A stretch of 11,815 nt of DNA from NCBI GenBank assembly GCA_033764315.1, contig JANRJA010000083.1, forward strand, positions 1 through 11,815. The letters run 5' to 3'. Source of the DNA: Oculatellaceae cyanobacterium bins.114. Its GTDB lineage: Bacteria; Cyanobacteriota; Cyanobacteriia; Elainellales; Elainellaceae. Each line of letters starts with the position of its first letter. Position 1 is the stretch's first letter. The notes below the pieces were generated by a model. It was not told where the DNA came from, ran no database searches, and saw nothing but the letters and a program-made list of their open reading frames with translations. Below are positions 2,209 to 11,641 of the stretch, piece after piece. The translations under genes and the position numbers were made by a program.

Positions 2209-3387
2209 ATGAAACTCATCTGCTCTCAAAACGAACTCAACACCCATCTCTCGCTGGTGAACCGGGCAGTTCCCTCTCGACCCAGCCATCCGGTCTTAGC
2301 TAATGTGCTATTAACAGCCAATCCAGAGACTCAACATGTGAGTCTCACCGGATTTGATTTGAGCTTGGGAGTGCAAACAGGTTTTTCGGCACAAGTTGAG
2401 GAAGGAGGAACCCTGACACTGCCTGCTAAATTGTTGAGTGATATTGTCTCACGTTTGCCTGATGGCGACATCACACTTGAGATTGTAGAAGGTGAATCGC
2501 TGGCAACATTAATTTCTGCCTCTGGGCGATATCAAGTGCGGTTTGGGTCAGATGAGTTTCCAGAACTCCCTGTTGTCCACAATGGCGGCATGGCGCACTT
2601 ACCAGCAGAAGCGTTGATTGAGGGGTTAAAAGGGTCACTCTTTGCAACCAGTACCGACGACACTAAGCAGGTTTTGACAGGGGTACACTTGACCGTGACA
2701 GCCGATGGGTTAGAGTTTGCGGCGACCGATGGACATCGCTTGTCAGTAGTGCAAACCCTCAACCCAGAGTCAGACACCCCTCCTGTCAAAAGCAAGGCGG
2801 CTAAGACCAAGCCTGAGGCGGCATCAGACGATCAACAGTTTGATGTAACCGTGCCGGGAAAAGCCCTGCGAGAACTAGAGCGGATGCTGCAACTGCAACC
2901 CTCGTCAGAGCCGATCGCCGTTCAGTTTGACCAGGGACAGTTGATTTTTGAATGGGCAAATCAACGGCTGATTAGTCGTCTGCTAGAGGGGCAATATCCT
3001 AACTATCGCCAGCTGATTCCCCGACAGTTTTCTCGCCAGATGACCGCAGAACGCCGACTATTCACCGGAGCACTCGAGCGAATCGCTGTGATGGCAGACC
3101 AAAAAAATAGCATTGTCAAAATGAATCTAGATAGCGTTAAGCAAGAAGCGGTGCTATCCGTTGATGCTCCCGATGTGGGAAGTGCACGAGAGGCGATCGC
3201 TGCCCAAATTTCAGGGGACGACCTAGAGATTGCCTTTAACGTGAAATATCTATTAGAAGGGCTAAAAGCAGTCACTACCTCTGAGGTGCAGATGCAGTTC
3301 AATACCTCCACTAGTCCGTCAATTTTGACTCCGTTAGGTGGGCTAAAGATGACCTATCTGGTGATGCCCGTCCAGATTCGTAGCTGA
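2209..3387 (+). CDS. dnaN: DNA polymerase III beta sliding clamp
   Basis: 392 aa with typical motifs: RAVPSRPSHPVLANVLL, GFDLSLG, EFPELP, AATDGHRL, SRLLEGQYPNYRQLIP, IAFNVKYL and C-terminal YLVMPVQIR. Adjacent to the DnaA boxes. Confidence 0.99.
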   Translation: MKLICSQNELNTHLSLVNRAVPSRPSHPVLANVLLTANPETQHVSLTGFDLSLGVQTGFSAQVEEGGTLTLPAKLLSDIVSRLPDGDITLEIVEGESLATLISASGRYQVRFGSDEFPELPVVHNGGMAHLPAEALIEGLKGSLFATSTDDTKQVLTGVHLTVTADGLEFAATDGHRLSVVQTLNPESDTPPVKSKAAKTKPEAASDDQQFDVTVPGKALRELERMLQLQPSSEPIAVQFDQGQLIFEWANQRLISRLLEGQYPNYRQLIPRQFSRQMTAERRLFTGALERIAVMADQKNSIVKMNLDSVKQEAVLSVDAPDVGSAREAIAAQISGDDLEIAFNVKYLLEGLKAVTTSEVQMQFNTSTSPSILTPLGGLKMTYLVMPVQIRS

Positions 3388-3875
3388 AATTTAACTGTAT
3401 TCAAATTGTAGTTCTAACTAGATTTCATAATTCAAAGGGTAGAAATTTTCCTGTTAATTAAGCTAGGCTGTGCAAGCAAATTTGAAGCTATTTAAGGGTG
3501 TGCTCGTTTATTCTGGGTGTGTCCGAATAGCTTCTTACAACCCATTTGGGATTGCTATATATGCACCCAAAAAGCGCTAAAGAAGATTTCCCAAAGGGAT
3601 TGCGACTGGTCGCTCTTGTAGACCATACCTTAATTAACTAAAGCTTAAACATTTTTAATCTTCTTATAGTTGGATCATTGATCTAATTGTAGTAAAATCA
3701 CCTGATCTGCTTATATGTAAGCACTCTGATTAATACTTCAGGATAGGTCAACTCCTCTTCTGACGGAAATTCAGTGCCTTCAAGATCTCTAATTCTGTTT
3801 AGCCAATAAACCAAATTAAATGTGTCTACTTAGTAGGATAGGCAATGTTTAGATGTTACAGCAGACTTAAGGATT

Positions 3876-4406
3876 ATGTCAGACAATTTAAGTTTAACTA
3901 AAAAATTGGATGCCTATCGACGGCTACAAATGAAGCATGATGAAATTTTCCATTTTGAAATTCTTGCACTCGGTGTCTCTCGACGGATGAGCCATATCGC
4001 ACTACATCTTATCAAATATCTCAGACCTCTTTCATCCCTACCCGTTTCGGCACCAGAAAATAAAAGGGCACTTGTTGATGCGTTTATTATGGTTATTTCT
4101 GCTAGCAACCTTTTAGGAGTTTCTTTATCGGTAGATCCAATATCAAACGAAGACATTAATCCTGATAAATCTTTTATCAACACTTATGTTCAATTTCTTG
4201 CTGATTTAGCTAAATCTTGCGAAGCGGCTGATCATCAAGAGGATTATCCTATCAGAGCAACTTGGAACAAAGCCATTCAACAATTATTTTTTCTACTGTC
4301 TAAGGAAGCTGCGGCACGTAATATCAATATTTTAGAAGAAGCTGCTTGTCGTTTAACTTCAGTTGAAAAAAGTAATTCACTTAATTATATTTTGAGCGAA
4401 AAATGA
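3876..4406 (+). CDS. Hypothetical all-alpha protein, possibly a divergent tandem MazG-like (NTP pyrophosphohydrolase fold) protein
   Basis: 176-aa ORF with AAGGA just upstream; its stop overlaps the next start (ATGA at 4403-4406). aa65-84 ALVDAFIMVISASNLLGVSL resembles the MazG helix ELADVLxxxxxLANxLGIDL, and aa149-164 NINILEEAACRLTSVE resembles the MazG C-terminal segment. The CDS is likely real; the fold call is tentative. Confidence 0.6.
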   Translation: MSDNLSLTKKLDAYRRLQMKHDEIFHFEILALGVSRRMSHIALHLIKYLRPLSSLPVSAPENKRALVDAFIMVISASNLLGVSLSVDPISNEDINPDKSFINTYVQFLADLAKSCEAADHQEDYPIRATWNKAIQQLFFLLSKEAAARNINILEEAACRLTSVEKSNSLNYILSEK

Positions 4407-5176
4407 GCTTTTGGTCATCACAAACTCTGGAATCTCGCTTACCTGATCTAATTGAACCATTTAGCCCAGAGCGGATAGATTCAGCCTCTTATGAATTATC
4501 TCTGGGAGATGAAATTCATATTTCAGCTCTATTTGATACACCTCATAAAGACCGAAAAACAATCCTTATTAAGGAAAAGGAGACTGTTGTTATACCTCCT
4601 GGTCAATTTGCATTCTTAATAACACTAGAGAAAGTTTCTATTCCTGACAGTGCTATTGCATTCATTTCAATGAAGTTTGGGGCCAAAGCAAAAGGATTGA
4701 TAAATGTCTCTGGATTTCACATTGATCCAGGCTACAAAGGGCGTTTGATTTTTGCCGTATACAATGCAGGTCCACTAAGTTTTCAAATGAAATATGGGGA
4801 GAGGCTATTTTCTCTATGGATAGCCGATCTAGACGCTACTGATGCTCGCGCTCGTAGAAAACCAGGATATGACTCTATACCTACGGCTTTAACAAATGGA
4901 CCAGAAGCAGTATCTTCACTTCCTTCCCTTGTAAAACGCTTGGATGAATTGGAAAAGAAGATAGAGAAATTTAACACCATACAAGCTATTCTCTGGGCGG
5001 TTGCTTTTTCTCTTACTGTTACCGTTGTCAAACCGTGGTTAGATAATTTTTTCTCTTCATTTACAAATCCAAACAACGGTGTAACAACTACTCCATCCCC
5101 ATCCACCTCTCCATCTTTATCTCCGACTCCATCTTTATCTCCGACTTCGACACCCAAAATCAGAACTAACCCGTGA
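4403..5176 (+). CDS. dCTP deaminase/trimeric dUTPase-fold protein with C-terminal coiled coil, transmembrane helix and Pro/Ser/Thr tail
   Basis: Dcd-family motifs IEPF, ASYELSLG, IPPGQFAFLITLEKVSIP, HIDPGYKGRL, VYNAG and YGER. aa173-190 is heptad-like (LPSLVKRLDELEKKIEKF), aa193-209 is hydrophobic (IQAILWAVAFSLTVTVV), and aa221-257 is low complexity. Confidence 0.88.
   Translation: MSFWSSQTLESRLPDLIEPFSPERIDSASYELSLGDEIHISALFDTPHKDRKTILIKEKETVVIPPGQFAFLITLEKVSIPDSAIAFISMKFGAKAKGLINVSGFHIDPGYKGRLIFAVYNAGPLSFQMKYGERLFSLWIADLDATDARARRKPGYDSIPTALTNGPEAVSSLPSLVKRLDELEKKIEKFNTIQAILWAVAFSLTVTVVKPWLDNFFSSFTNPNNGVTTTPSPSTSPSLSPTPSLSPTSTPKIRTNP
5109..5146 (+). repeat. In-frame 18-bp perfect tandem repeat CTCCATCTTTATCTCCGA x2
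   Basis: Copies at 5109-5126 and 5127-5144 encode PSLSPT-PSLSPT in the tail of the Dcd-like protein. Confidence 0.9.
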
Positions 5177-5581
5177 CCAACGGAGACCTGATAGTTTTTG
5201 AAAAATCGCTAAAAGCTAAAAACATTATGTAGCGGAGTTTCAGCAGTTTACTCTGAGCAGTTGGCATCACTGACCAGTTACGACTTTATTCCTGAAGCTT
5301 TATTTTATGCATCTTCATAAAGAATTGATATTACTTAAAAACTAGTCTTTAGTTAGCTTGCCATGATTATTTCAAGCAAAATAGTGAGTGGTTATTTTAC
5401 TTTGAAGATATGTCAATGAAATAAAGCCCTTTTTTGGTAGTAATTTTGGCAATTGCGCTATGACCCAGATCCGTAGCTAGACTCATTAACGATTGGAGGC
5501 TAAAAGATGAATCACAGAGACACAGCACAGATAAGATTTTCAAAGAATACTGTGTCCTTTAAATACTGGGGTGGGTTAAGT

Positions 5582-6208
5582 CTAGCGAACTTTTTTTTCT
5601 TTTTTGGAGACGGCAGGACAACCTGACAAATACCAACGCCAGGGCAAATCAACCCCCTTAGTCAATCCGATGCGAGTGGTTTGACTAAGAGTTAGTTGTC
5701 CTTGGTCAAGTTGCTCTTGAAACGAGGGCGTGCGGTGCTCTAACCAGAGAGGTTGTCCAGGTTGTAATGGAATGGCATTAAGAGACACATCAATCTTTAG
5801 GGCTAAACAGAGTTTGCCAGGTCCTGCTGCAACTCGATGAGGTTTAATCTGGTGTGGGTCAATCCAATCGGGCAGGGTTGCTAGCTCAAGGGCACGAATT
5901 AAAACCGCACTGGGAACGCCATCTTGATCGGTCACAACATTGAGGCAATGATAAAACCCATAGATCTGATACACATAGACTCGACCAGCAACGCCAAACA
6001 TAATCTGGTTACGGTTGGTGCGCCGACGATAGGCATGCATCGCCGGATCGTCTGGTGTATAAGCTTCAGTTTCGACGATCAATCCTCGGAGTGTGACTCC
6101 ATCTGGCATTTGACGAACTAGGGTGCAACCAATCAAATCAGAAGCCACTTGGGTTGAGGGGCGGCTCAACCAAATAGCATCAATTGGGTCAGTAGAGGGC
6201 ATAAACAT
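5582..6208 (-). CDS. mpg: DNA-3-methyladenine glycosylase (Mpg/AAG family)
   Basis: Motifs GLIVETEAY, DPAMHAY, YVYQIYGFYHCLNVVT, AVLIRAL, GPGKLC, TTRIGL and LPWRWY. The start is uncertain: ATG at 6208 or 6202 is preferred over the GTG at 6253. Confidence 0.95.
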   Translation of the reverse strand: MFMPSTDPIDAIWLSRPSTQVASDLIGCTLVRQMPDGVTLRGLIVETEAYTPDDPAMHAYRRRTNRNQIMFGVAGRVYVYQIYGFYHCLNVVTDQDGVPSAVLIRALELATLPDWIDPHQIKPHRVAAGPGKLCLALKIDVSLNAIPLQPGQPLWLEHRTPSFQEQLDQGQLTLSQTTRIGLTKGVDLPWRWYLSGCPAVSKKEKKVR

Positions 6209-6361
6209 TGAGATCCCGGTTTCTCGTTGCGTTGACTGACGTTGCCTGAGCACTTTACCAGAAACCGGAGATCTGGCAATAGTCGCCCATCGGGTTACAT
6301 AACTCCTCCATAATCATGCTGATTCAGAGAGGAGCCGCTGTAGTGTAAACTCACTGATACG

Positions 6362-7615
6362 GTGAGCAGGCGACAGGTTACGATGACAGCCCAGGGGACA
6401 CGACCAGAACCATCTAGCATGGAACCCAACTCAAATGAGTGGTCATGGTCATTTTGGTTTTTAGTGCCGCTCTATCCCTATGGCAAACGCCGAACGTTGC
6501 GTCATGAAGTGGTAAAAGACACCATTTGGACGTTTGAGCAGATTCAAGGCATTTTTTATGTTGTCGTTCCAATTCGGATGACGGTGGTGCGGCTAGAAAC
6601 AGGAGGGCTATTGGTCTATGCACCGATCGCCCCTACCCCTGAGTGCATTCAGTTGCTAAACGAATTGGTGGCTCAGCACGGAGAGGTGAAATACATCATT
6701 TTGCCAACTGTGTCCGGTTTAGAACACAAAGTATTTGTCGGTCCCTTTGCTCGGTTTTTCCCCAATGCTCAAGTGTTTGTGGCTCCTAAGCAATGGAGTT
6801 TTCCGATCAATTTGCCATTGAGTTGGTTAGGTTTTCCGCGTCGTCGGACATTTGTGCTGCCGGATGATAGCCGTAATGTGCCTTTTGGCGATGAGTTTGA
6901 TTATGCTATCTTGACGGTCGATTTAGGACGGCGTTGGTTTGGTGAGGTGGCCTTGTTACATAAGCGATCGCGCACCCTACTGGTCACAGACTCAGTGATC
7001 TCTGTCCCTGATCACCCCCCCGCGATCGTTCAACTTGATCCCTATCCGTTGTTGTTTCATGCCAAAGAAAATGCAGCTGACTTGATTCAAGATACGCCTG
7101 CAAACCGCTGTAAAGGATGGCATCGAATCTGTCTGTTTGCCTTGTACTTTCAGCCTGAGGCATTAGAAACAGTCACGTTGGGTGAGGCATTTCAAGAATC
7201 TTTTAAGGCACCCGATCGCTCCAAAAAAGCCTATTTAGGGCTATTTCCCTTTCGTTGGAAACCCAGTTGGGAGGCTGCATTTCGGCAAATGAGTCGGCAG
7301 GGTCAGTTGTTAGTGGCTCCCATTTTGCAAGCGTTGATTCTCAATCGTGCACCTAAAGAGGCGATCGCCTGGGCAAATCGGGTTGCCAGTTGGGATTTTC
7401 AACAGATTATCCCCTGTCATTTTGATGCGCCAGTCACCGCGACCCCATCTCAATTTCGGCAAGCGTTCGCATTCTTAGAAAAGCAGCCTTTGAAGGGTAG
7501 GCTACTAGAGAGTGAATCTGCGTCTTTGCCCAAAGAAGATGTGGCGTTTCTCAATGAGTTGAGCCAAACCTTGACCAAGGTGAGGGTGGTACCCCCGGCC
7601 CAAGACAAAATTTAG
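6362..7615 (+). CDS. DUF4336 family protein (metallo-beta-lactamase-like fold, conserved in cyanobacteria)
   Basis: Motifs VPLYPYGKRRT, IRMTVVRL, LLVYAPIAPT, GLEHK, TLLVTD and IIPCHFDAP. The exact start is uncertain. Confidence 0.88.
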   Translation: MSRRQVTMTAQGTRPEPSSMEPNSNEWSWSFWFLVPLYPYGKRRTLRHEVVKDTIWTFEQIQGIFYVVVPIRMTVVRLETGGLLVYAPIAPTPECIQLLNELVAQHGEVKYIILPTVSGLEHKVFVGPFARFFPNAQVFVAPKQWSFPINLPLSWLGFPRRRTFVLPDDSRNVPFGDEFDYAILTVDLGRRWFGEVALLHKRSRTLLVTDSVISVPDHPPAIVQLDPYPLLFHAKENAADLIQDTPANRCKGWHRICLFALYFQPEALETVTLGEAFQESFKAPDRSKKAYLGLFPFRWKPSWEAAFRQMSRQGQLLVAPILQALILNRAPKEAIAWANRVASWDFQQIIPCHFDAPVTATPSQFRQAFAFLEKQPLKGRLLESESASLPKEDVAFLNELSQTLTKVRVVPPAQDKI

Positions 7616-7661
7616 TAGATTCAGTTCAATCGTGATGGCTTGCAACTCCCTCAAAAGGGTA

Positions 7662-7699
7662 GAGGGGATGACGATCGCCCCCGCAACGTCATTCCCCTC
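7662..7699. terminator. Strong hairpin between the convergent DUF4336 and tgt genes; probable terminator
   Basis: GAGGGGATGACG (7662-7673) pairs with CGTCATTCCCCTC (7687-7699), 12 bp with one bulge. The U-tails are weak. Confidence 0.55.
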
Positions 7700-7901
7700 A
7701 GTCTTTATAGTAGAAAAATAAGACAGGTACACCGTCCACCAGACAGGTGATTCCCGCTCATCCGAATGGATGAGATAGGGAGCAAGGAAAAGGGAAAAAA
7801 AGCAGAGAGAAGAGGGTTAAGGGTAAACTCAGCAAGTGCTATCCCGTTGCCTCATTCTATTTAACGTCACAACTGTCACAACTGTCTTGACACTGGCTAT
7901 A

Positions 7902-9002
7902 TTACAACCAATGTCCAAATTCATCTAAAAAGCGATCGCCCATAATCGCTTCACGAATCCGTTGAGTAAAGTGAATTAGCTCGGTGATGTTATGAATCGA
8001 GATCAACGTGGCGGCTAGCAACTCATGAGCATGCAACAAGTGACTCAAATAAGCTCGAGTAAATGTTTGACAGGTATAACAAGGGCAGGTTTCATCCAGT
8101 GGTGTAAAGTCTTTGCGAAAACGATTGTTTTTGAGGTTCCAGCGGGTGCCTTGCACTAACGCATTGCCATGTCGGGCTAAGCGAGTTGGGATCACACAGT
8201 CAAAGAGATCGACCCCAGCGGCGATCGCCTGCACCATTTCTTTGTGAGTACCGACTCCCATCAAATAACGCGGTTTATTGACAGGCAAGAGAGGAGCCGT
8301 AGTCTTAACGATCGCCTCGATCATTTCTGAGGGTTCCCCTACACTGACGCCACCAATGGCATAACCATGAGCGTCGATCTCAGCTAATGCTTTAGCCGCA
8401 TTATGCCGAAGATCAGGATAGACTCCTCCTTGGATGATGGGAAAGAGAGCCTGATCAGTTCGTTGGTGAGCAGCAAAACATCTTTCTAGCCAACGATAAG
8501 TGCGATCGGTTGCTGCTTTAACGGCTTCCCAACTAGCAGGATAAGGCGGGCACTCATCAAATGCCATGATCACATCTGCACCCAGCGCATTTTGAATCTG
8601 AATCGATCGCTCTGGGGTAAAGTGAATAGTTTGTCCATCACGAGGAGAGCGAAACGTCACTCCCTCTTCGGCGATCGTCCGAATTTCACTTAAGCTAAAG
8701 ACCTGAAACCCACCCGAATCGGTTAGCATCGGGCCCTGCCATCCCATAAATCGATGCAAACCCCCGGCCTGCGCGACAATATCTTCTCCAGGTTGCAAAT
8801 GCAAATGGTAAGTATTGGCTAAAACCATTTGCGCGCCTGTTGCTTGCAACTGTTGTGGGGTAACAGTTTTAACGTTTGCTAACGTGCCCACTGGCATAAA
8901 CCGAGGGGTCTCAACCAAACCGTGGGGTGTAAAAAAAATGCCAGCTCGCGCCTGAGTATGGCTACAACGAGCTTGGTGTTGAAACGAAAAATGTGAACTC
9001 AA
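7902..9002 (-). CDS. tgt: tRNA-guanine transglycosylase (queuine tRNA-ribosyltransferase)
   Basis: Motifs [59 protein letters not shown] and the Zn site CPCYTC...HN. TTG start. Confidence 0.98.
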
Positions 9003-9012
9003 GCGTTAGGTA

Positions 9013-9471
9013 CTACAGCGAAAAATTTTCTTCGTCATCAATCCGAACATCCCAACTGGCGGAGAGAACTTCGGCAACGACGGCTTCTAGAGCGGCTGCA
9101 TTAAGGGTGCGGCTACTTTGATCTTGAAGTGGATTAGATAGTGGGATCAAGCGCAGTTGACGATTATCTTGAACGAGATCAAACCACGCCTGTTGTTCAG
9201 GAGATTGTTTCAATTCTAAATAATCAAAACTGTGGACATTGATGTAAAGTGTGTGGTTGGCGACTAATGTTGATCGTTGCGGATCGGAAAATACGTCCAG
9301 CACACAGCCTTCATTTTCGCTGAGCAAATTGCCATCTTGAATGTAGCAGTAGCGAACCCGATTGAGGTCGGAAAGTAGTCGCTGCATGTCTTGTTTGTTG
9401 ATCACAATACCCGTGTCAACAATGCAAGGAGCGGGCAGCTTGGCGTTTCCAGAAAGTTGATCGTGACTCAT
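9013..9471 (-). CDS. Conserved cyanobacterial hypothetical protein (152 aa), probably co-transcribed with tgt
   Basis: ORF ends 10 bp before the tgt start. ATG at 9471 (MSHDQLSGNAKLPAPCIVDTG) is preferred over the TTG at 9546. It resembles a cyanobacterial hypothetical family as I recall it; function unknown. Confidence 0.8.
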   Translation of the reverse strand: MSHDQLSGNAKLPAPCIVDTGIVINKQDMQRLLSDLNRVRYCYIQDGNLLSENEGCVLDVFSDPQRSTLVANHTLYINVHSFDYLELKQSPEQQAWFDLVQDNRQLRLIPLSNPLQDQSSRTLNAAALEAVVAEVLSASWDVRIDDEENFSL

Positions 9472-10268
9472 AGTAATGACAAAGCCATGACCTGAGATAT
9501 ATAGGTCTGGTAATGTTGATGAAAAATAAAAAAAACGGAACTTCAAGTTTGCAGCCCTGGTCTTTAGAGGAAAAAACTAGTGGCTAGCGGAACGAGTAGT
9601 TAGTTAATCATGCTGAGGTGATTGCACTACTTCAGGACAAAGCTGGGTTAAAAGACATATCAGCTAGTTATCTTAGAGAACTGTCAGCTCTGCCAAACTG
9701 AGTTGTGTTGCAACTCTATTTAGTAGTGCATGAAACAATCTTATCCTAGATAATTAAATGTATCTCCTACGAAACCCATGAAAAGTAAGCACCTGCAAGA
9801 CCTACAGCGATTTTTGATTTTCAGATTTGAGTGGAAAACATAATTATGACGCTAAGAGGAGTTTAGAAATTCAGCTAAGGTGCTGAATCTTTTTAGATAG
9901 CTTTATGGTATAAGAACGGATCACACGATGCACCCCTCTCACTGTGTCTTAAAAGGCAGCATCGGTGACTAAAGTTGCAGACTTCGACGTGAGCCACCGA
10001 ACGCTACACGAGCAAAACTGGCCTCCGCAGGTTACAAAAAGCCTGGATTGGCTTAAGTCCGCTTCCCGTCGCTAGAGATCGGGGATCTTAGAAAAAAGGC
10101 ATTCAAAGCGTTTCCTCAAAGTCCTTCGGAAGGGGTGAATTTAGGGACTACTAACGCTGCCAGTACTCTCTTCATGCCTGGATTTAGCAACGCCTCAAGC
10201 AATACCTGAGGTTGACTTGGCTGATAACTTTGACTGCGACCCATGATAGTGGAGATAGACGATTAACC

Positions 10269-11042
10269 ATGATGGCGACTGTAATGGCATGGATGGCACA
10301 GTTTGCGGCAGCGATCGCCTTTTATACGACTGTGCCGATTCCTCTTCACTGGACGCTGGAATTTCAGTGGGTGTCTCGTTGGGTGGTGGTGGTTGGGTTG
10401 CTGATTGGTGGCATGCTGGCAGTGTTGAACGGGGGCTTGTGGGCAGTCGGCATGCCTGTTTTAGTACGCAGTACTGTGGTTGTGCTCATTTGGATCAGCA
10501 TCACCGGGGGGTTGCATCTAGATGGGGCAATGGATACGGCAGATGGACTGGCGGTGCAAGATCCACAACGACGATTAGAGGTGATGACCGACAGTGCTAC
10601 AGGGGCCTTTGGGGCAATGGTGGCGATCGCCCTGGTATTTCTCAAAATCGCGGCTCTCGCTGAACTTGGCTCTGTTGCTGCCCCGGCTTTGATGCTTGCC
10701 ACAGGTTGGGGACGATGGGCGCAGCAGGTGGCGATCGCCCGCTATCCCTATCTCAAACCCACAGGCAAAGGGGCATTTCACAAAAAGGCAATTCCCTCCA
10801 TTGGTTACGTCATTCCCAGTGCGTTACTCTTACTGTCTCTCAGCGTGGTGTTATACGCTTTGGGCGTGTCCTGGTGGTGGGCATTAGGTAGTGTTTTGAT
10901 AGGAGGGGCGATCGCTCTGATAGTCCCTGCTTGGTTTCATCAGCAATTGGGAGGACATACCGGAGACACGTATGGAGCTACCGTAGAGTGGACAGAGGCG
11001 ATCGTGCTGGTGGGGTTAACGCTTTTAGGGAGTGCTGAGTAG
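10269..11042 (+). CDS. cobS: Adenosylcobinamide-GDP ribazoletransferase (cobalamin synthase)
   Basis: Multi-pass membrane protein with ITGGLHLDGAMDTADG, RRLEVMTDSATGAFG and LGGHTGDTYGATVEWTE. An ATG near 10269-10284 is more plausible than the TTG at 10212. Confidence 0.97.
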   Translation: MMATVMAWMAQFAAAIAFYTTVPIPLHWTLEFQWVSRWVVVVGLLIGGMLAVLNGGLWAVGMPVLVRSTVVVLIWISITGGLHLDGAMDTADGLAVQDPQRRLEVMTDSATGAFGAMVAIALVFLKIAALAELGSVAAPALMLATGWGRWAQQVAIARYPYLKPTGKGAFHKKAIPSIGYVIPSALLLLSLSVVLYALGVSWWWALGSVLIGGAIALIVPAWFHQQLGGHTGDTYGATVEWTEAIVLVGLTLLGSAE

Positions 11043-11206
11043 CGATTAACCCATGACTTCGCAGTGTCGCAATATCATTAAACAATCTCAAAAATAATCT
11101 CATCGCCTTTTGACACAGCCCTCCTCACCCCTGTTAGTGATTGACGGCTGACGATTAACTATTGACAATTGACCTGGTTCCCTTTTATTCAGTTCCCTTG
11201 GCTAAG

Positions 11207-11641
11207 ATGACTGACTCTGAAACCTCTGCTGCTAACGACGCTCTTGTGACCTGTGCCACAGCTTTAGGAATTCCCCAAATTCAGCGGCATGTCTTTATTT
11301 GTGCTGACCAAACGGTTCCCAAGTGTTGTGATAAAGCAGATAGTTTAGTGGCCTGGGACTATCTTAAAAAACGGCTGAAGGAACTCAAACTGGATATACC
11401 AACTAGCGATCGCCCTACCTGCATTTTTCGGACAAAAGCCAATTGCTTACGAGTCTGTCAACAAGGGCCAATTCTCCTAATCTACCCCGATGGTGTGTGG
11501 TATCGCAGCGCGACTCCAGAGGTAATTGAACAAATTATTCAAAGCCATCTCATCAATCATCAAATTCTCAACGAATATGCTTTTCTAGTGCATCCGCTGC
11601 CTCAAACTCCAGAAATGGTCTTAACCGAAACAAACCTATAG
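11207..11641 (+). CDS. Thioredoxin-like (2Fe-2S) ferredoxin
   Basis: RHVFICADQTVPKCC ... RTKANCLRVCQQGPILLIYPDGVWY ... IIQSHL is the Trx-like ferredoxin pattern. ATG at 11207 is preferred over the TTG at 11162. Confidence 0.92.
   Translation: MTDSETSAANDALVTCATALGIPQIQRHVFICADQTVPKCCDKADSLVAWDYLKKRLKELKLDIPTSDRPTCIFRTKANCLRVCQQGPILLIYPDGVWYRSATPEVIEQIIQSHLINHQILNEYAFLVHPLPQTPEMVLTETNL

Follow-up and report, generated by a model that had tools for sequence, protein, structure and literature searches.

Beside dnaN in the cyanobacterium Oculatellaceae bins.114 lie two small genes, and the question they raise is whether such a pair can form an anti-phage system of its own. A preliminary description of this DNA had proposed exactly that: an undescribed, self-contained module made of a MazG-like protein (here gene A) and a membrane-anchored protein of the dCTP deaminase (Dcd)/dUTPase fold (gene B). 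The window, meaning the whole stretch that was analysed, comprises 11,815 nucleotides of contig JANRJA010000083.1. The reading favoured below, to which we give a probability of roughly one half, is that A and B reached this genome by horizontal transfer as the minimal form of a mobile, nucleotide-centred system of several genes, which is widespread and predicted to act against phages.

Gene A (3876..4406, plus strand, 176 aa) and gene B (4403..5176, plus strand, 257 aa) were taken from the ORF list. They are co-oriented, as first described, and the sequence reads ATGA at 4403..4406 (plus strand), where the ATG of B shares its letters with the TGA of A. A 4-nt overlap recurs in many related loci, the upstream gene ending at the B start +3, and from its sequence it is taken to couple the translation of the two genes. 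Both are real genes, since their best homologues were found at E-values of 4e-69 for A and 3e-117 for B. The pair had also been said to stand alone in an AT-rich insert free of HIP1, and this was borne out. The insert (3388..5581) extends from dnaN (2209-3387) to a methylpurine-DNA glycosylase (MPG) gene (5582-6253, minus strand) and contains A and B only; apart from antisense shadows of these two genes, it holds no further ORF of 50 aa or more. GC content is about 35-37% across about 3400-5600 compared with about 48-54% in the flanking genes, and amounts to 38.1% for the A-B pair, 37.0% for the insert, and 48.2% for the remainder of the window. HIP1 (GCGATCGC) is present in 15 copies across the window, against 0.10 expected, yet it is absent from 3200 to 6964. 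AT-rich non-coding sequence borders the pair on both sides, over about 490 and 400 bp. Flanking direct repeats, tRNA genes, and Rfam families were looked for around the insert and not found, and promoter and terminator scans of the locus did not rise above shuffles.

The proposal of a self-contained system was not supported once relatives were considered. Eighty related loci from many phyla were collected through B, and their partner genes were checked with Pfam. HMUDK_hel was found in 69 of the 80 loci, MazG-MazG_C in 50, an M78 peptidase in 39, and DUF1643 in 24. Gene A was present in 28 and always lay directly 5′ of B on the same strand. Because further conserved genes (HMUDK_hel, DUF1643, or MazG-MazG_C) accompany B in 78/80 loci, the A-B pair is not self-contained, and A is one of two alternative partners. 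A and B alone were seen in two loci (L029 and L051), of which L029 is an unrelated alphaproteobacterial contig. Using tblastn, no remnants of HMUDK_hel, DUF1643, or M78 genes were detected in the 11.8-kb window, and the MazG-MazG_C gene was likewise absent, with a 30-residue tail as its single match.

Since partner genes present in 78/80 relatives are missing without trace, and the flanks of A-B in the window are housekeeping genes and not a defence island, the pair could be an inactive leftover. Under this explanation, which we consider improbable, a larger island has lost HMUDK_hel, DUF1643, and the regulator, and the pair is a decaying or neutral remnant that would play no part in this genome beyond, at most, redundant dUTP housecleaning. 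The AT-rich non-coding DNA around the pair would suit such decay, as would the divergence of B. On the B tree the window protein falls inside a cyanobacterial clade (support 99) as sister to L003, with a branch of 0.46 against 0.17 for its nearest relative, and it carries rare substitutions at His39 (Tyr in 77/81 family members) and Ile107 (Val in 80/81). However, neither ORF is disrupted and each still has all residues that are invariant in its family, the ATGA coupling has been retained, tblastn revealed no pseudogene traces of the missing genes, and an A-B-only arrangement is also seen in L029, an unrelated contig.

Comparison of the loci showed that A and MazG-MazG_C are exchangeable upstream cassettes of B. 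When partner type was placed on the B tree, at least four changes fell on starred branches, and parsimony required 10 to 13. In Nostoc, loci L009 and L012 are 88-94% identical on either side of a swapped middle, and their DNA becomes homologous again within the upstream gene, 78 bp short of its end. The C-terminal 30 residues of A (147-176; 4314..4403, plus strand) are a tail common to the alternative partner. In tblastn searches five Nostoc MazG-MazG_C proteins matched the A tail with their final 30 residues at 47-60% identity (53-60% in the best four), and outside these residues the five proteins had no match to A. AF2 models the tail at low confidence, its two final blocks having pLDDT values of 68 and 48. 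Such modularity, with two swappable upstream cassettes and a common short tail, offers a tractable case for part-swapping in defence systems.

Gene B was confirmed to encode a Dcd/dUTPase fold. Its residues 1-145 (4403..4837, plus strand) form a dUTPase/Dcd beta-barrel domain, modelled with pLDDT mostly above 90. B matched the Pfam family DCD (PF22769) at 9.5e-17; dUTPase (PF00692) reached 0.001 and 19.3 bits against a cut-off of 22. In PHROGs, B matched phrog_1663 at 1e-15. Foldseek ranked the Thermococcus pacificus dUTPase 8y1w first (E 7.7e-14, TM 0.91 by target, rmsd 1.9), followed by the dUTPase P45 structure 9ln0 and then by Dcd and Dcd-Dut enzymes, with E 1e-12 and TM (by target) of 0.69-0.78 for the Dcd structures. 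In NCBIfam, B scored 72.3 bits with dCTP_deam (TIGR02274), under the cut-off of 92.8, and 24 against 102.55 with TIGR00576. As B remains below the curated cut-offs of both Dcd and Dut models, catalysis is not assured. Relatives of B number 447 in species-representative genomes, and those in the 80 loci are 36-69% identical to it over the full length, including the transmembrane (TM) tail.

Judged by its active-site columns, B has the Dcd/dUTPase fold but is no dCTP deaminase, since the column of the catalytic Glu is Ala, Ser, or Thr in 81/81 family members (A 51, S 29, T 1; Glu in 0/81). In the window this residue is Ala118, which aligns with E138 of E. coli Dcd, the position that the mutant structure 1xs4 (E138A) likewise has as Ala. 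Dcd (E. coli 1xs1; TIGR02274) resembles B in fold and in the ‘DPG’ motif region, but besides the change at E138 the window protein has Phe92 and Ala96 in the columns of S111 and R115 (counted from E138 in the alignment), which we take to be active-site residues of Dcd. Across the family, column 92, which is also that of the dUTPase motif II Ser, contains A 49, F 25, S 3, T 3, and R 1; Phe or Ser predominates in column 96. The Dcd R110 column is K in 42 and R in 39 proteins. Motif II keeps a basic residue in 81/81, and its next Ser is replaced by A or F in 74/81. Motif III is preserved: the window reads H-I-D108-P-G-Y-K-G, which fits the context G-x-[IV]-D-x-G-[YW]-x-G, and both D108 and P109 are invariant. 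The family alignment (n=81) contains 20 invariant barrel residues, including D108, K95, Q68, and E76; S89, S103, and N121 are also invariant in 81/81.

The archaeal dUTPases 8y1w and 9ln0/9ln3 (‘thermostable dUTPase P45’) were the best matches of B in sequence (E 4e-16 and 2e-14) as well as in structure, where B residues 14-145 were covered at a TM by target of 0.86-0.91 and an rmsd of 1.8-2.3 Å. Like B, 8y1w and 9ln0 are without the deaminase Glu and have Met in the E138 column. They differ in motif II, which is Arg-Ser-Ser in the archaeal enzymes versus Lys-Phe-Gly in B. Moreover, the archaeal dUTPases are soluble proteins of 155-156 aa and lack a C-terminal helix, TM segment, and tail. Housekeeping Dcd is soluble too.

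The membrane anchor that had been proposed for B is supported by its C-terminal part. According to DSSP on the model, residues 174-220 (4922..5062, plus strand) are one long helix, in which an amphipathic stretch (174-192) leads continuously into a single TM segment. Hydropathy places this segment at residues about 195-213 (4985-5041, plus strand), the top 19-mer scoring 1.65 at residue 195. A hydrophobic 19-mer of at least 1.6 at about 190-230 was found in 79/81 family members; of the other two, L023 is truncated and L046 reaches 1.31. Residues 221-257 (5063..5173, plus strand) are a Pro/Ser/Thr-rich, disordered, variable tail, with pLDDT below 50 over 222-248, and among relatives this tail varies in length and cannot be aligned. 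With the enzyme domain inside the cell, the tail would be expected on the far side of the membrane, away from the cytoplasm.

On such features the preliminary description had built a model of abortive infection. In the version considered here, a catalytically dead, trimeric B barrel senses a nucleotide that A makes or removes, binding is relayed via the coiled helix to the TM segment, and membrane damage kills or arrests the infected cell. A nucleotide enzyme coupled to a TM effector is indeed the design of many defence systems. The loss of deaminase residues throughout the family, a motif II Ser column that is mostly Ala or Phe, the continuity of the TM helix with a long amphipathic helix kept in 79/81 proteins, and the translational coupling of A and B would all agree with this model. 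Nevertheless, there is one TM helix per chain and no recognisable pore-forming domain, and a dead barrel would have to account for its 20 invariant residues, among them the motif III Asp, Lys95, Gln68, and Glu76. The nearest solved relatives are active dUTPases, which are also without the Glu. Considering this invariant polar set and the active archaeal relatives, an enzyme fits at least as well as a sensor. Nothing specific was found in favour of a Dcd-like ligand sensor firing a TM effector, and we regard the model as unlikely.

Gene A is assigned, at the level of fold and by matches with weak scores, to the all-alpha NTP pyrophosphatases (MazG, dimeric dUTPase). Its AF2 model has a pLDDT of 85. 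Foldseek against the PDB gave nothing at E<=1e-3, and the best TM values, 0.51-0.60, were those of the dimeric dUTPases 5myd, 5myi, and 1ogl; over the staphylococcal phage (5myd/5myi) and trypanosomal (1ogl/4dkb) enzymes the range was 0.46-0.60. In BFVD a protein of Acinetobacter phage Acj9 came first (5.6e-5), ahead of NTP-PPase, MazG-like, and dUTPase proteins, and the fold matches included a putative dUTPase of Delftia phage PhiW-14. Among Atlas structures, TM values of 0.63-0.74 were obtained to viral MazG-like, PRA-PH, and dUTPase_2 clusters. A profile of 98 A relatives matched the MazG-type PDB chains 5ie9 and 2gta in the D68-N78 helix, at E 0.04-0.1. Conversely, no Pfam family matched A, PADLOC and NCBIfam gave nothing meaningful, and no significant sequence match to MazG or dimeric dUTPases was found. 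None of the 98 relatives matched Pfam MazG-type models convincingly; one matched PF12643 at E 0.01. The label MazG-like therefore stands for the fold and not for a curated sequence model. When A, or a profile of 46 sequences, was compared with the sequences in the PDB, the matches were due to chance only (nucleoporin, CodY). In PHROGs, A matched phrog_19333 at 1.4e-8. We discarded the idea that A is a MazG_C domain standing on its own, as hhalign found no global homology between A and MazG-MazG_C (probability 6%).

The residues conserved in A may mark a distinct branch of this fold. A total of 503 cluster representatives match A. In the 98 relatives Q18, D22, K47, Y48, D119, and E122 are invariant, and H21, H26, H40, H44, D68, N78, K113, E116, H120, and R159 are nearly so. 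The acidic residues D22, D68, E116, D119, and E122, candidates for metal binding, are conserved, the D68 helix being the one part that aligns to MazG at the E-values given above. The set is rich in His (H21, H26, H40, H44, H120), unlike the conserved acidic set of MazG, which is presumably EExxE...ExxD. It is conceivable, if doubtful, that A and B are after all a self-sufficient two-gene immune module with a new mechanism, in which a trimeric B, held at the membrane by its coiled helix and TM anchor, cooperates with A as a new His-rich branch of the MazG fold. A special pyrimidine dNTP (dUTP, 5-hm-dUTP) of thymine-replacing phages would then be destroyed at the site of DNA entry, or nucleotide binding would be converted to a membrane signal. 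A and MazG-MazG_C would serve as alternative specificity modules plugged onto B via the C-terminal docking tail.

Returning to the minimal-form reading, its first element is mobility. The B-family system is spread over at least eight phyla, and cross-phylum sister pairs were found on the B tree. In 68/73 related loci the GC content of the system is lower than that of its flanks (median -5.3 points). The A-B pair is thus foreign, as it is AT-rich and HIP1-free, has relatives across phyla, and belongs to a family with GC below that of the flanks. An origin from a prophage was not supported, the phage matches to B being ordinary Dcd/dUTPase genes that cover the barrel only. In the phage collection the TM part of B was never matched, no record spanned 80% of A or of B, and A relatives were weak (4 records, two Acinetobacter T4-like phages, 25-28% identity) and had no B-like neighbour.

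The second element is defence, for which neighbouring genes were surveyed in 15 systematically sampled loci. Of 198 neighbour ORFs, 22 had a PADLOC match at E<=1e-20; these are raw counts, and several of the matches fall on generic methyltransferase or ATPase domains or on genes of group II introns and transposons. Clear named defence systems were present in 6/15 loci, and three (L024, L055, and L073) had no PADLOC neighbour at this threshold. The L003 cluster encloses pAgo and a Cas4-like nuclease, and the L044 cluster encloses AbiEi/AbiEii. Genes of restriction-modification (RM), DruE (Druantia), and HEC-01/IetS adjoin clusters in sampled loci. Defence genes such as pAgo, AbiE, RM, and DruE are thus frequently near or inside the clusters of the relatives, and the window has housekeeping flanks.

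Comparison with known systems addressed the claim that the pair is undescribed. PADLOC-DB 2.0 contained no family for A or for B at E<=1. Literature searches found no name for an HMUDK_hel/MazG-MazG_C/dUTPase-TM system, the relevant match being the DefensePredictor paper. In the text of DeWeirdt, Mahoney and Laub (Science 2026, PMC13092281), defence systems that are predicted but unvalidated include some with MazG, MazG-C, and dUTPase domains, and an earlier prediction is credited to Burroughs et al. (2015, NAR). The pair is therefore not wholly undescribed, as its partner families are curated in Pfam and domains of these kinds are already among the predictions. The predicted cluster consists of HMUDK_hel (PF18723), MazG-MazG_C (PF03819 and PF18722), and a DCD-like dUTPase-TM protein (PF22769), with or without DUF1643 (PF07799) and M78/HTH. 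Based on its legend and the accompanying text, the system drawn in Fig. 6F of PMC13092281 is probably this cluster. Gene B of the window belongs to the same family and is likewise placed directly 3′ of an NTP-PPase-type gene, which in this family it often overlaps. The window differs in having no HMUDK_hel, MazG-MazG_C, DUF1643, or M78 regulator, and its upstream gene is A, which is detectably homologous to MazG-MazG_C in the last ~30 residues only.

A further HMUDK_hel-containing system, DS-4 (‘NTTI’) of E. coli, is a validated anti-phage system that protects this host; Table S8 of the same paper gives it thymidylate-synthase-like, dNMP kinase, HMUDK_hel, NDT/TIR-like, and Nmad2 proteins (PMC13092281). 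It resembles the clusters described here in being nucleotide-centred and in having HMUDK_hel, the commonest B partner (69/80 loci). As tabulated there, however, DS-4 is without a dUTPase-like or MazG-like protein and shares no component with the window pair.

The HMUDK_hel family also suggests a different role for the cluster. Modification clusters of phages commonly include MazG-like and dUTPase/Dcd genes. The full cluster might make a hypermodified pyrimidine in the DNA of the cell itself or of an element, as in phage thymidine hypermodification, with A and B shaping the precursor pool (dUTP or dCTP to dUMP) and being the only genes left in the window. HMUDK_hel (Pfam PF18723) takes its name from a 5-hmdU DNA kinase of phages, the DS-4 protein that contains it is labelled ‘putative DNA base hypermodification protein’ in that source, and A and B have the PHROGs matches noted above, as A has its fold match to the putative PhiW-14 dUTPase. 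On the other hand, the annotated part of the 25 largest neighbour clusters included no thymidylate-synthase-like hydroxymethylase or aGPT-pyrophosphorylase, and the few phage relatives of A are weak and not accompanied by B. DS-4, the one tested HMUDK_hel system in the source above, acts as defence, and modification would give no account of membrane anchoring. We hold this to be the least probable of the explanations considered.

The minimal-form reading instead would make A and B nucleotide hydrolases, and we infer that the system they come from defends against phages. B is its conserved member, with one of two cassettes directly 5′: A, or MazG-MazG_C often together with DUF1643. Most loci add HMUDK_hel and many an M78-peptidase regulator, and the window has A and B alone. 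In the proposed mechanism A acts as an all-alpha NTP pyrophosphatase and B as a trimeric dUTPase-type enzyme tethered at the inner membrane face, and the C-terminal tail that A and MazG-MazG_C have in common may dock either protein on B. Together they would clear a non-canonical pyrimidine dNTP (dUTP, 5-hydroxymethyl-dUTP, or a relative) needed by thymine-replacing phages. Where the system is complete, the matching base in DNA would be the target of HMUDK_hel and DUF1643. Against catalysis in B stand the loss of the motif II Ser and scores under both the Dcd and Dut cut-offs, and hydrolysis offers no account of the membrane tethering of B.

Starving a phage of a deoxynucleotide, the idea favoured here for A and B, is also that of the defensive dCTP deaminase and dGTPase systems, although no PADLOC model of those systems matches A or B. 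Tal et al. reportedly found such defensive nucleotide depletion, and in the described defensive dCTP deaminase a kinase-like domain accompanies the zinc cytidine-deaminase fold. If the cluster does defend, bacterial immunity would gain enzymes of two further kinds, those with a dUTPase fold and those of a new MazG-like family. Thymine-replacing phages evade many restriction systems, and the cluster would point to a defence against phages in which uracil, 5-hydroxymethyluracil, or hypermodified bases replace thymine. The minimal A-B form, as in the window and L029, would be the simplest construct for a first test.

Two minor points concern related loci. No DnaA-box clusters were found adjoining the system in L019 and L020. 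In proteobacterial loci an apparent plus-strand gene between MazG_C and B was set aside, as its ORFs look to be in the wrong frame; the real gene there is an ACPS-type transferase on the minus strand.

Gene A, which encodes a 176-aa MazG-like protein, and gene B, which encodes a 257-aa membrane-anchored protein of the Dcd/dUTPase fold, are open reading frames at 3876..4406 and 4403..5176 of the forward strand. The stop codon of A and the start codon of B overlap in an ATGA at 4403-4406 (+). The GC content of the A-B region is 35-37%, against ~48-54% in the adjoining genes (pair, 38.1%; insert at 3388-5581, 37.0%; remaining window, 48.2%). The cyanobacterial octamer HIP1 occurs 15 times in the window, where 0.1 are expected, and is absent between 3200 and 6964. 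The flanking genes are housekeeping genes, and the order is histone-deacetylase-family gene, DUF2721, dnaN, A-B, methylpurine glycosylase gene, DUF4336, tgt, and cobS. The preliminary description thus observed the pair correctly in all details. The insert borders carry no tRNA, Rfam family, or flanking repeat. Two ORFs elsewhere in the window, at 9013-9546 (-, 177 aa) and 11162-11641 (+, 159 aa), matched no Pfam family at E<=0.001.

Species-representative genomes were scanned with two B-specific peptide patterns, which gave 447 relatives; the analysis continued with the best 80 loci, most of them taken with 10 kb of sequence to either side as far as the contig reached. Twenty-four of these are cyanobacterial; the others come from Alpha-, Beta-, and Gammaproteobacteria, Acidobacteriota, Planctomycetota, Bacteroidota, Actinomycetota, Gemmatimonadota, and other groups. 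Components were counted over the best 80 loci with HMMs made from Pfam-checked seeds. The partners of B were HMUDK_hel (PF18723; 69/80), a protein with MazG and MazG_C domains (PF03819 + PF18722; 50/80), an M78/IrrE-type peptidase (39/80), A (28/80), and DUF1643 (PF07799; 24/80), which we take to be UDG-like and for which no solved relative was found. An Xre-type HTH is present in L035, the single locus annotated for it. The window's pair is very probably a member of this family (probability about 0.9). HMUDK_hel, the commonest partner, is described as a 'DNA base hypermodification' protein, and the genes might be read as a DNA-modification pathway, which we consider quite improbable.

One slot, immediately upstream of B and in its orientation, is filled by either A or MazG-MazG_C, often with the same 4-nt overlap. 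A takes this slot in all 28 loci that carry it, and MazG-MazG_C does so in cyanobacterial loci. Among the best 80 loci both proteins occur together once, in L003, and neither is present in three. Many Nostocales have the order TPR - HMUDK - DUF1643 - MazG/MazG_C - B - Uma2. Typical arrangements of A-type loci are HMUDK - A - B (L006, L007, L012), A - B - DUF1643 (e.g., L015, L022, L024, L026), or A - B - HMUDK (e.g., L028, L030, L032, L033). A large proteobacterial clade has the order M78 - x - HMUDK - MazG/MazG_C - [ACPS, other strand] - B.

In many proteobacterial loci MazG_C and B are thus separated by a minus-strand gene whose product, of ~135 aa, is an ACPS-type 4'-phosphopantetheinyl transferase (PF01648, E 5e-14 to 6e-16; e.g., L057 9471-9890, L041 7782-8162, and L075 9486-9890, all -). 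This neighbour cluster (cluster 5) comprises 24 loci, Pfam confirmed 3/3 members tested, and the transferase may be a further system component. In nine Nostocales loci (neighbour cluster 10; e.g., L004 10841-11626) a Uma2-family gene ('putative restriction endonuclease', PD-(D/E)xK-like, PF05685) follows B after ~100-280 bp; it may be a system member or one among the numerous Uma2 copies that cyanobacteria carry.

A maximum likelihood tree of B (80 rows, with L023 omitted as truncated) places the cyanobacterial proteins in one clade (support 99), in which the window's B is sister to that of L003 (Leptolyngbyaceae, 67% identity). The partner type switches at least four times on well-supported branches (10 to 13 times by parsimony), and different partners stand beside almost identical B proteins. 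The Nostoc loci L009 and L012 share 88-90% identity through HMUDK, and from a point 78 bp short of the upstream gene's end their identity is 94%; between these conserved ends one locus has DUF1643 + MazG-MazG_C and the other has A. In accordance with this early return of homology, residues 147-176 of the window's A share 47-60% identity with the C-terminal 30 residues of five Nostoc MazG-MazG_C proteins (53-60% in the best four). Outside this tail the two proteins have no likeness, and in the monomer model of A the tail is poorly defined. We infer that in function the shared tail goes with B, serving as a docking segment or forming part of a coupling region.

The form found in the window, A-B without HMUDK or DUF1643, occurs in two of the best 80 loci, L029, with flanks of 6.5 + 2.5 kb, and L051, on a 3.4-kb contig. 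No trace of the missing partner genes was found beside A-B within the window. That the pair is a functionless remnant in this genome is unlikely.

A has no Pfam or PADLOC match and no meaningful NCBIfam match, and matches one PHROG of unknown function. A profile of 46 close relatives retrieved 503 cluster representatives at E<=1e-3 from 1.84 billion proteins, and the 150 matches listed are mostly 160-230 aa long. Over 98 diverse relatives Gln18, Asp22, Lys47, Tyr48, Asp119, and Glu122 are invariant, and His21, His26, His40, His44, Asp68, Asn78, Lys113, Glu116, His120, and Arg159 are nearly so. The AF2 model is all-alpha (pLDDT 85). It had no match in the PDB at E 1e-3 or better; the matches with real superposition were the dimeric dUTPases 5myd, 5myi, 1ogl, and 4dkb (TM 0.46-0.56 by query, up to 0.60 by target). 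Among viral models the top match was an Acinetobacter phage Acj9 protein, which tblastn also found, followed by NTP-PPase-like, MazG-like, and dUTPase proteins. In the ESM Atlas A resembled MazG-like, PRA-PH, and dUTPase_2 clusters (TM 0.63-0.74) and, by features, a dUTPase_2 cluster (0.91). The 98-sequence profile matched two MazG-type PDB chains (E 0.04-0.1) over the helix bearing Asp68 and Asn78. These four lines, each weak, agree, and A is probably a His-rich and divergent representative of the all-alpha NTP pyrophosphatase fold. The earlier term 'MazG-like' is apt for the fold and does not hold as a family assignment.

Residues 7-140 of B match Pfam PF22769 'dCTP deaminase-like' (9.5e-17); B falls below the cut-off for the dUTPase model and for the NCBIfam Dcd and Dut models. 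The model of B, built from 40 relatives (pLDDT 81), has a beta barrel (1-145), a linker, a single helix (174-220), and a disordered Pro/Ser/Thr tail. Its closest solved structures are not deaminases but Dcd-like dUTPases of Thermococcales, namely 8y1w (with dUMP) and 9ln0/9ln3 'dUTPase P45' (E 8e-14, TM by target 0.86-0.91, rmsd ~2 A), with Dcd and bifunctional Dcd-Dut enzymes next. When aligned with E. coli Dcd, B has Ala118 in the column of the catalytic Glu138, the residue type found there in the inactive Dcd mutant E138A (1xs4). Counted back from this column, Arg110-Ser111-Ser112 of Dcd become Lys-Phe-Gly and Arg115 becomes Ala, all four being residues to which the literature ascribes active-site roles in Dcd. 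Over 81 B-family members from many phyla the Glu138 column holds Ala in 51, Ser in 29, Thr in 1, and Glu in 0, and the Arg110 column is Lys or Arg in all 81. Invariant in these members are the motif-III Asp108, Lys95, Gln68, Glu76, Ser89, Ser103, and Asn121. By these columns B is not a dCTP deaminase. It would be either a hydrolase of the dUTPase type whose phosphate site has changed or a derivative that binds nucleotides.

The membrane anchor is a defining feature of the B family. A hydrophobic 19-mer (Kyte-Doolittle >=1.6) lies around residues 190-230 in 79 of the 81 members, the exceptions being L046 (1.31) and the truncated copy in L023. In the latter, from a Nostoc bin (10001-10561), B ends at 186 aa with loss of the TM segment, which may reflect decay of the gene or an error in sequencing. 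The preliminary description had proposed that B binds a nucleotide ligand and triggers its membrane module. Such a sensor-effector would fit the changed phosphate site and the conservation of the TM helix, but B has a single TM segment and is conserved in the manner of an enzyme, and we find the proposal doubtful.

Rather than an isolated and undescribed two-gene system, the pair is a minimal, A-type form of a multi-gene system; the other domains of that system have curated Pfam families, and it has been predicted to be a defence. One paper (DeWeirdt, Mahoney and Laub, Science 2026, PMC13092281) reports DS-4, validated in E. coli, with thymidylate-synthase-like, dNMP kinase, HMUDK_hel, NDT/TIR-like, and Nmad2 proteins. 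It further lists eight predicted systems that include aGPT-Pplase, MazG, MazG-C ('a predicted nucleotide kinase'), a dUTPase, and a domain associated with nucleotide modification, of which 'none have been experimentally validated'; the legend of Fig. 6F also names UDG, TPR, and HTH, and Burroughs et al. (2015) are credited with an earlier prediction (PMC13092281). No other paper linking the HMUDK_hel, MazG, MazG-C, and dUTPase domains was found in the literature searched. Within that literature the following are new: that the A family serves as the alternative partner, that cassettes are exchanged and share a tail, that loci with A-B alone exist, and that the whole B family has lost the deaminase residues and conserves a TM anchor.

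The system would defend against phages, with non-canonical pyrimidine nucleotides at its centre. [quoted passage not shown] In the simplest reading A and B would hydrolyse a dNTP that certain phages must accumulate, e.g., dUTP or 5-hm-dUTP, and the DNA-directed parts of the full system would handle its counterpart base in DNA. The mechanism, in which a non-canonical pyrimidine dNTP is hydrolysed, is put forward tentatively. The tether could place B at the DNA entry site or give it a second role as a membrane effector.

Mobility is suggested by phylum-crossing sister pairs on the B tree (Flavobacteriales with Nitrosomonas; Planctomycetota with an alphaproteobacterium) and by Actinomycetota and Gemmatimonadota rows nested in an alphaproteobacterial clade, placements that rest on taxon labels, which can be wrong for metagenome bins. 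The system genes have a lower GC content than the surrounding 10 kb in 68/73 loci with enough flank (median -5.3 points). Every third of 45 fully flanked loci was sampled, and all 198 non-system ORFs of >=150 aa in these 15 loci were compared with PADLOC. At E<=1e-20, 22 ORFs matched, in 12/15 loci; L024, L055, and L073 had no such neighbour. Several matches fell on methyltransferase or ATPase domains of a generic kind, or on a group II intron. Clear named defence systems stood in 6/15 loci: class II pAgo + Cas4-like nuclease and type II RM (L003), type IIG RM (L033), DruE (L039), AbiEi/AbiEii (L044), HEC-01/AriA-like ATPase + IetS beside a type V-K CRISPR-transposon (L015), and Orf5/type IV enzyme (L050). 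In L003, the window's closest relative, the pAgo (E = 0, 1113 bits) and Cas4-like nuclease (5e-134) lie at 5834-8859, between MazG-MazG_C and A-B, with a type II methyltransferase and specificity subunit downstream. AbiEi/AbiEii of L044 (8161-9971; 3e-95, 4e-103) lie between the MazG_C/ACPS genes and B. As the scan covered only neighbours of the system, this is an association and not a measured enrichment. On balance we lean towards a defensive function for the family.

The near-identical locus L041 has a gap equal to that of L044 between the MazG_C/ACPS genes and B. In L015, TnsB, TnsC, and TniQ of the type V-K CRISPR-associated transposon (15922-18992) lie 5-8 kb downstream of A-B-DUF1643, and an AAA_21/HEC-01-like ATPase and a DUF4276 protein are directly upstream of A.

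Seven DnaA-box-like motifs at 1807-1999, five perfect (TTTTCCACA) and two with one mismatch, sit in a 700-bp AT-rich gap upstream of dnaN; the whole window has 11 matches against 4.7 expected. This cluster looks like the chromosomal origin, which would put the A-B insert ~1.4 kb away from it. In the Nostocales loci L019 and L020, perfect DnaA boxes did not form a cluster. Anabaena lutea FACHB-196 and Trichormus sp. NMC-1 have a dnaN gene (L019 8532-9677; L020 11553-12698) at 730-860 bp downstream of B, with 61% identity to that of the window, so that the system adjoins dnaN in three cyanobacteria, on differing sides.
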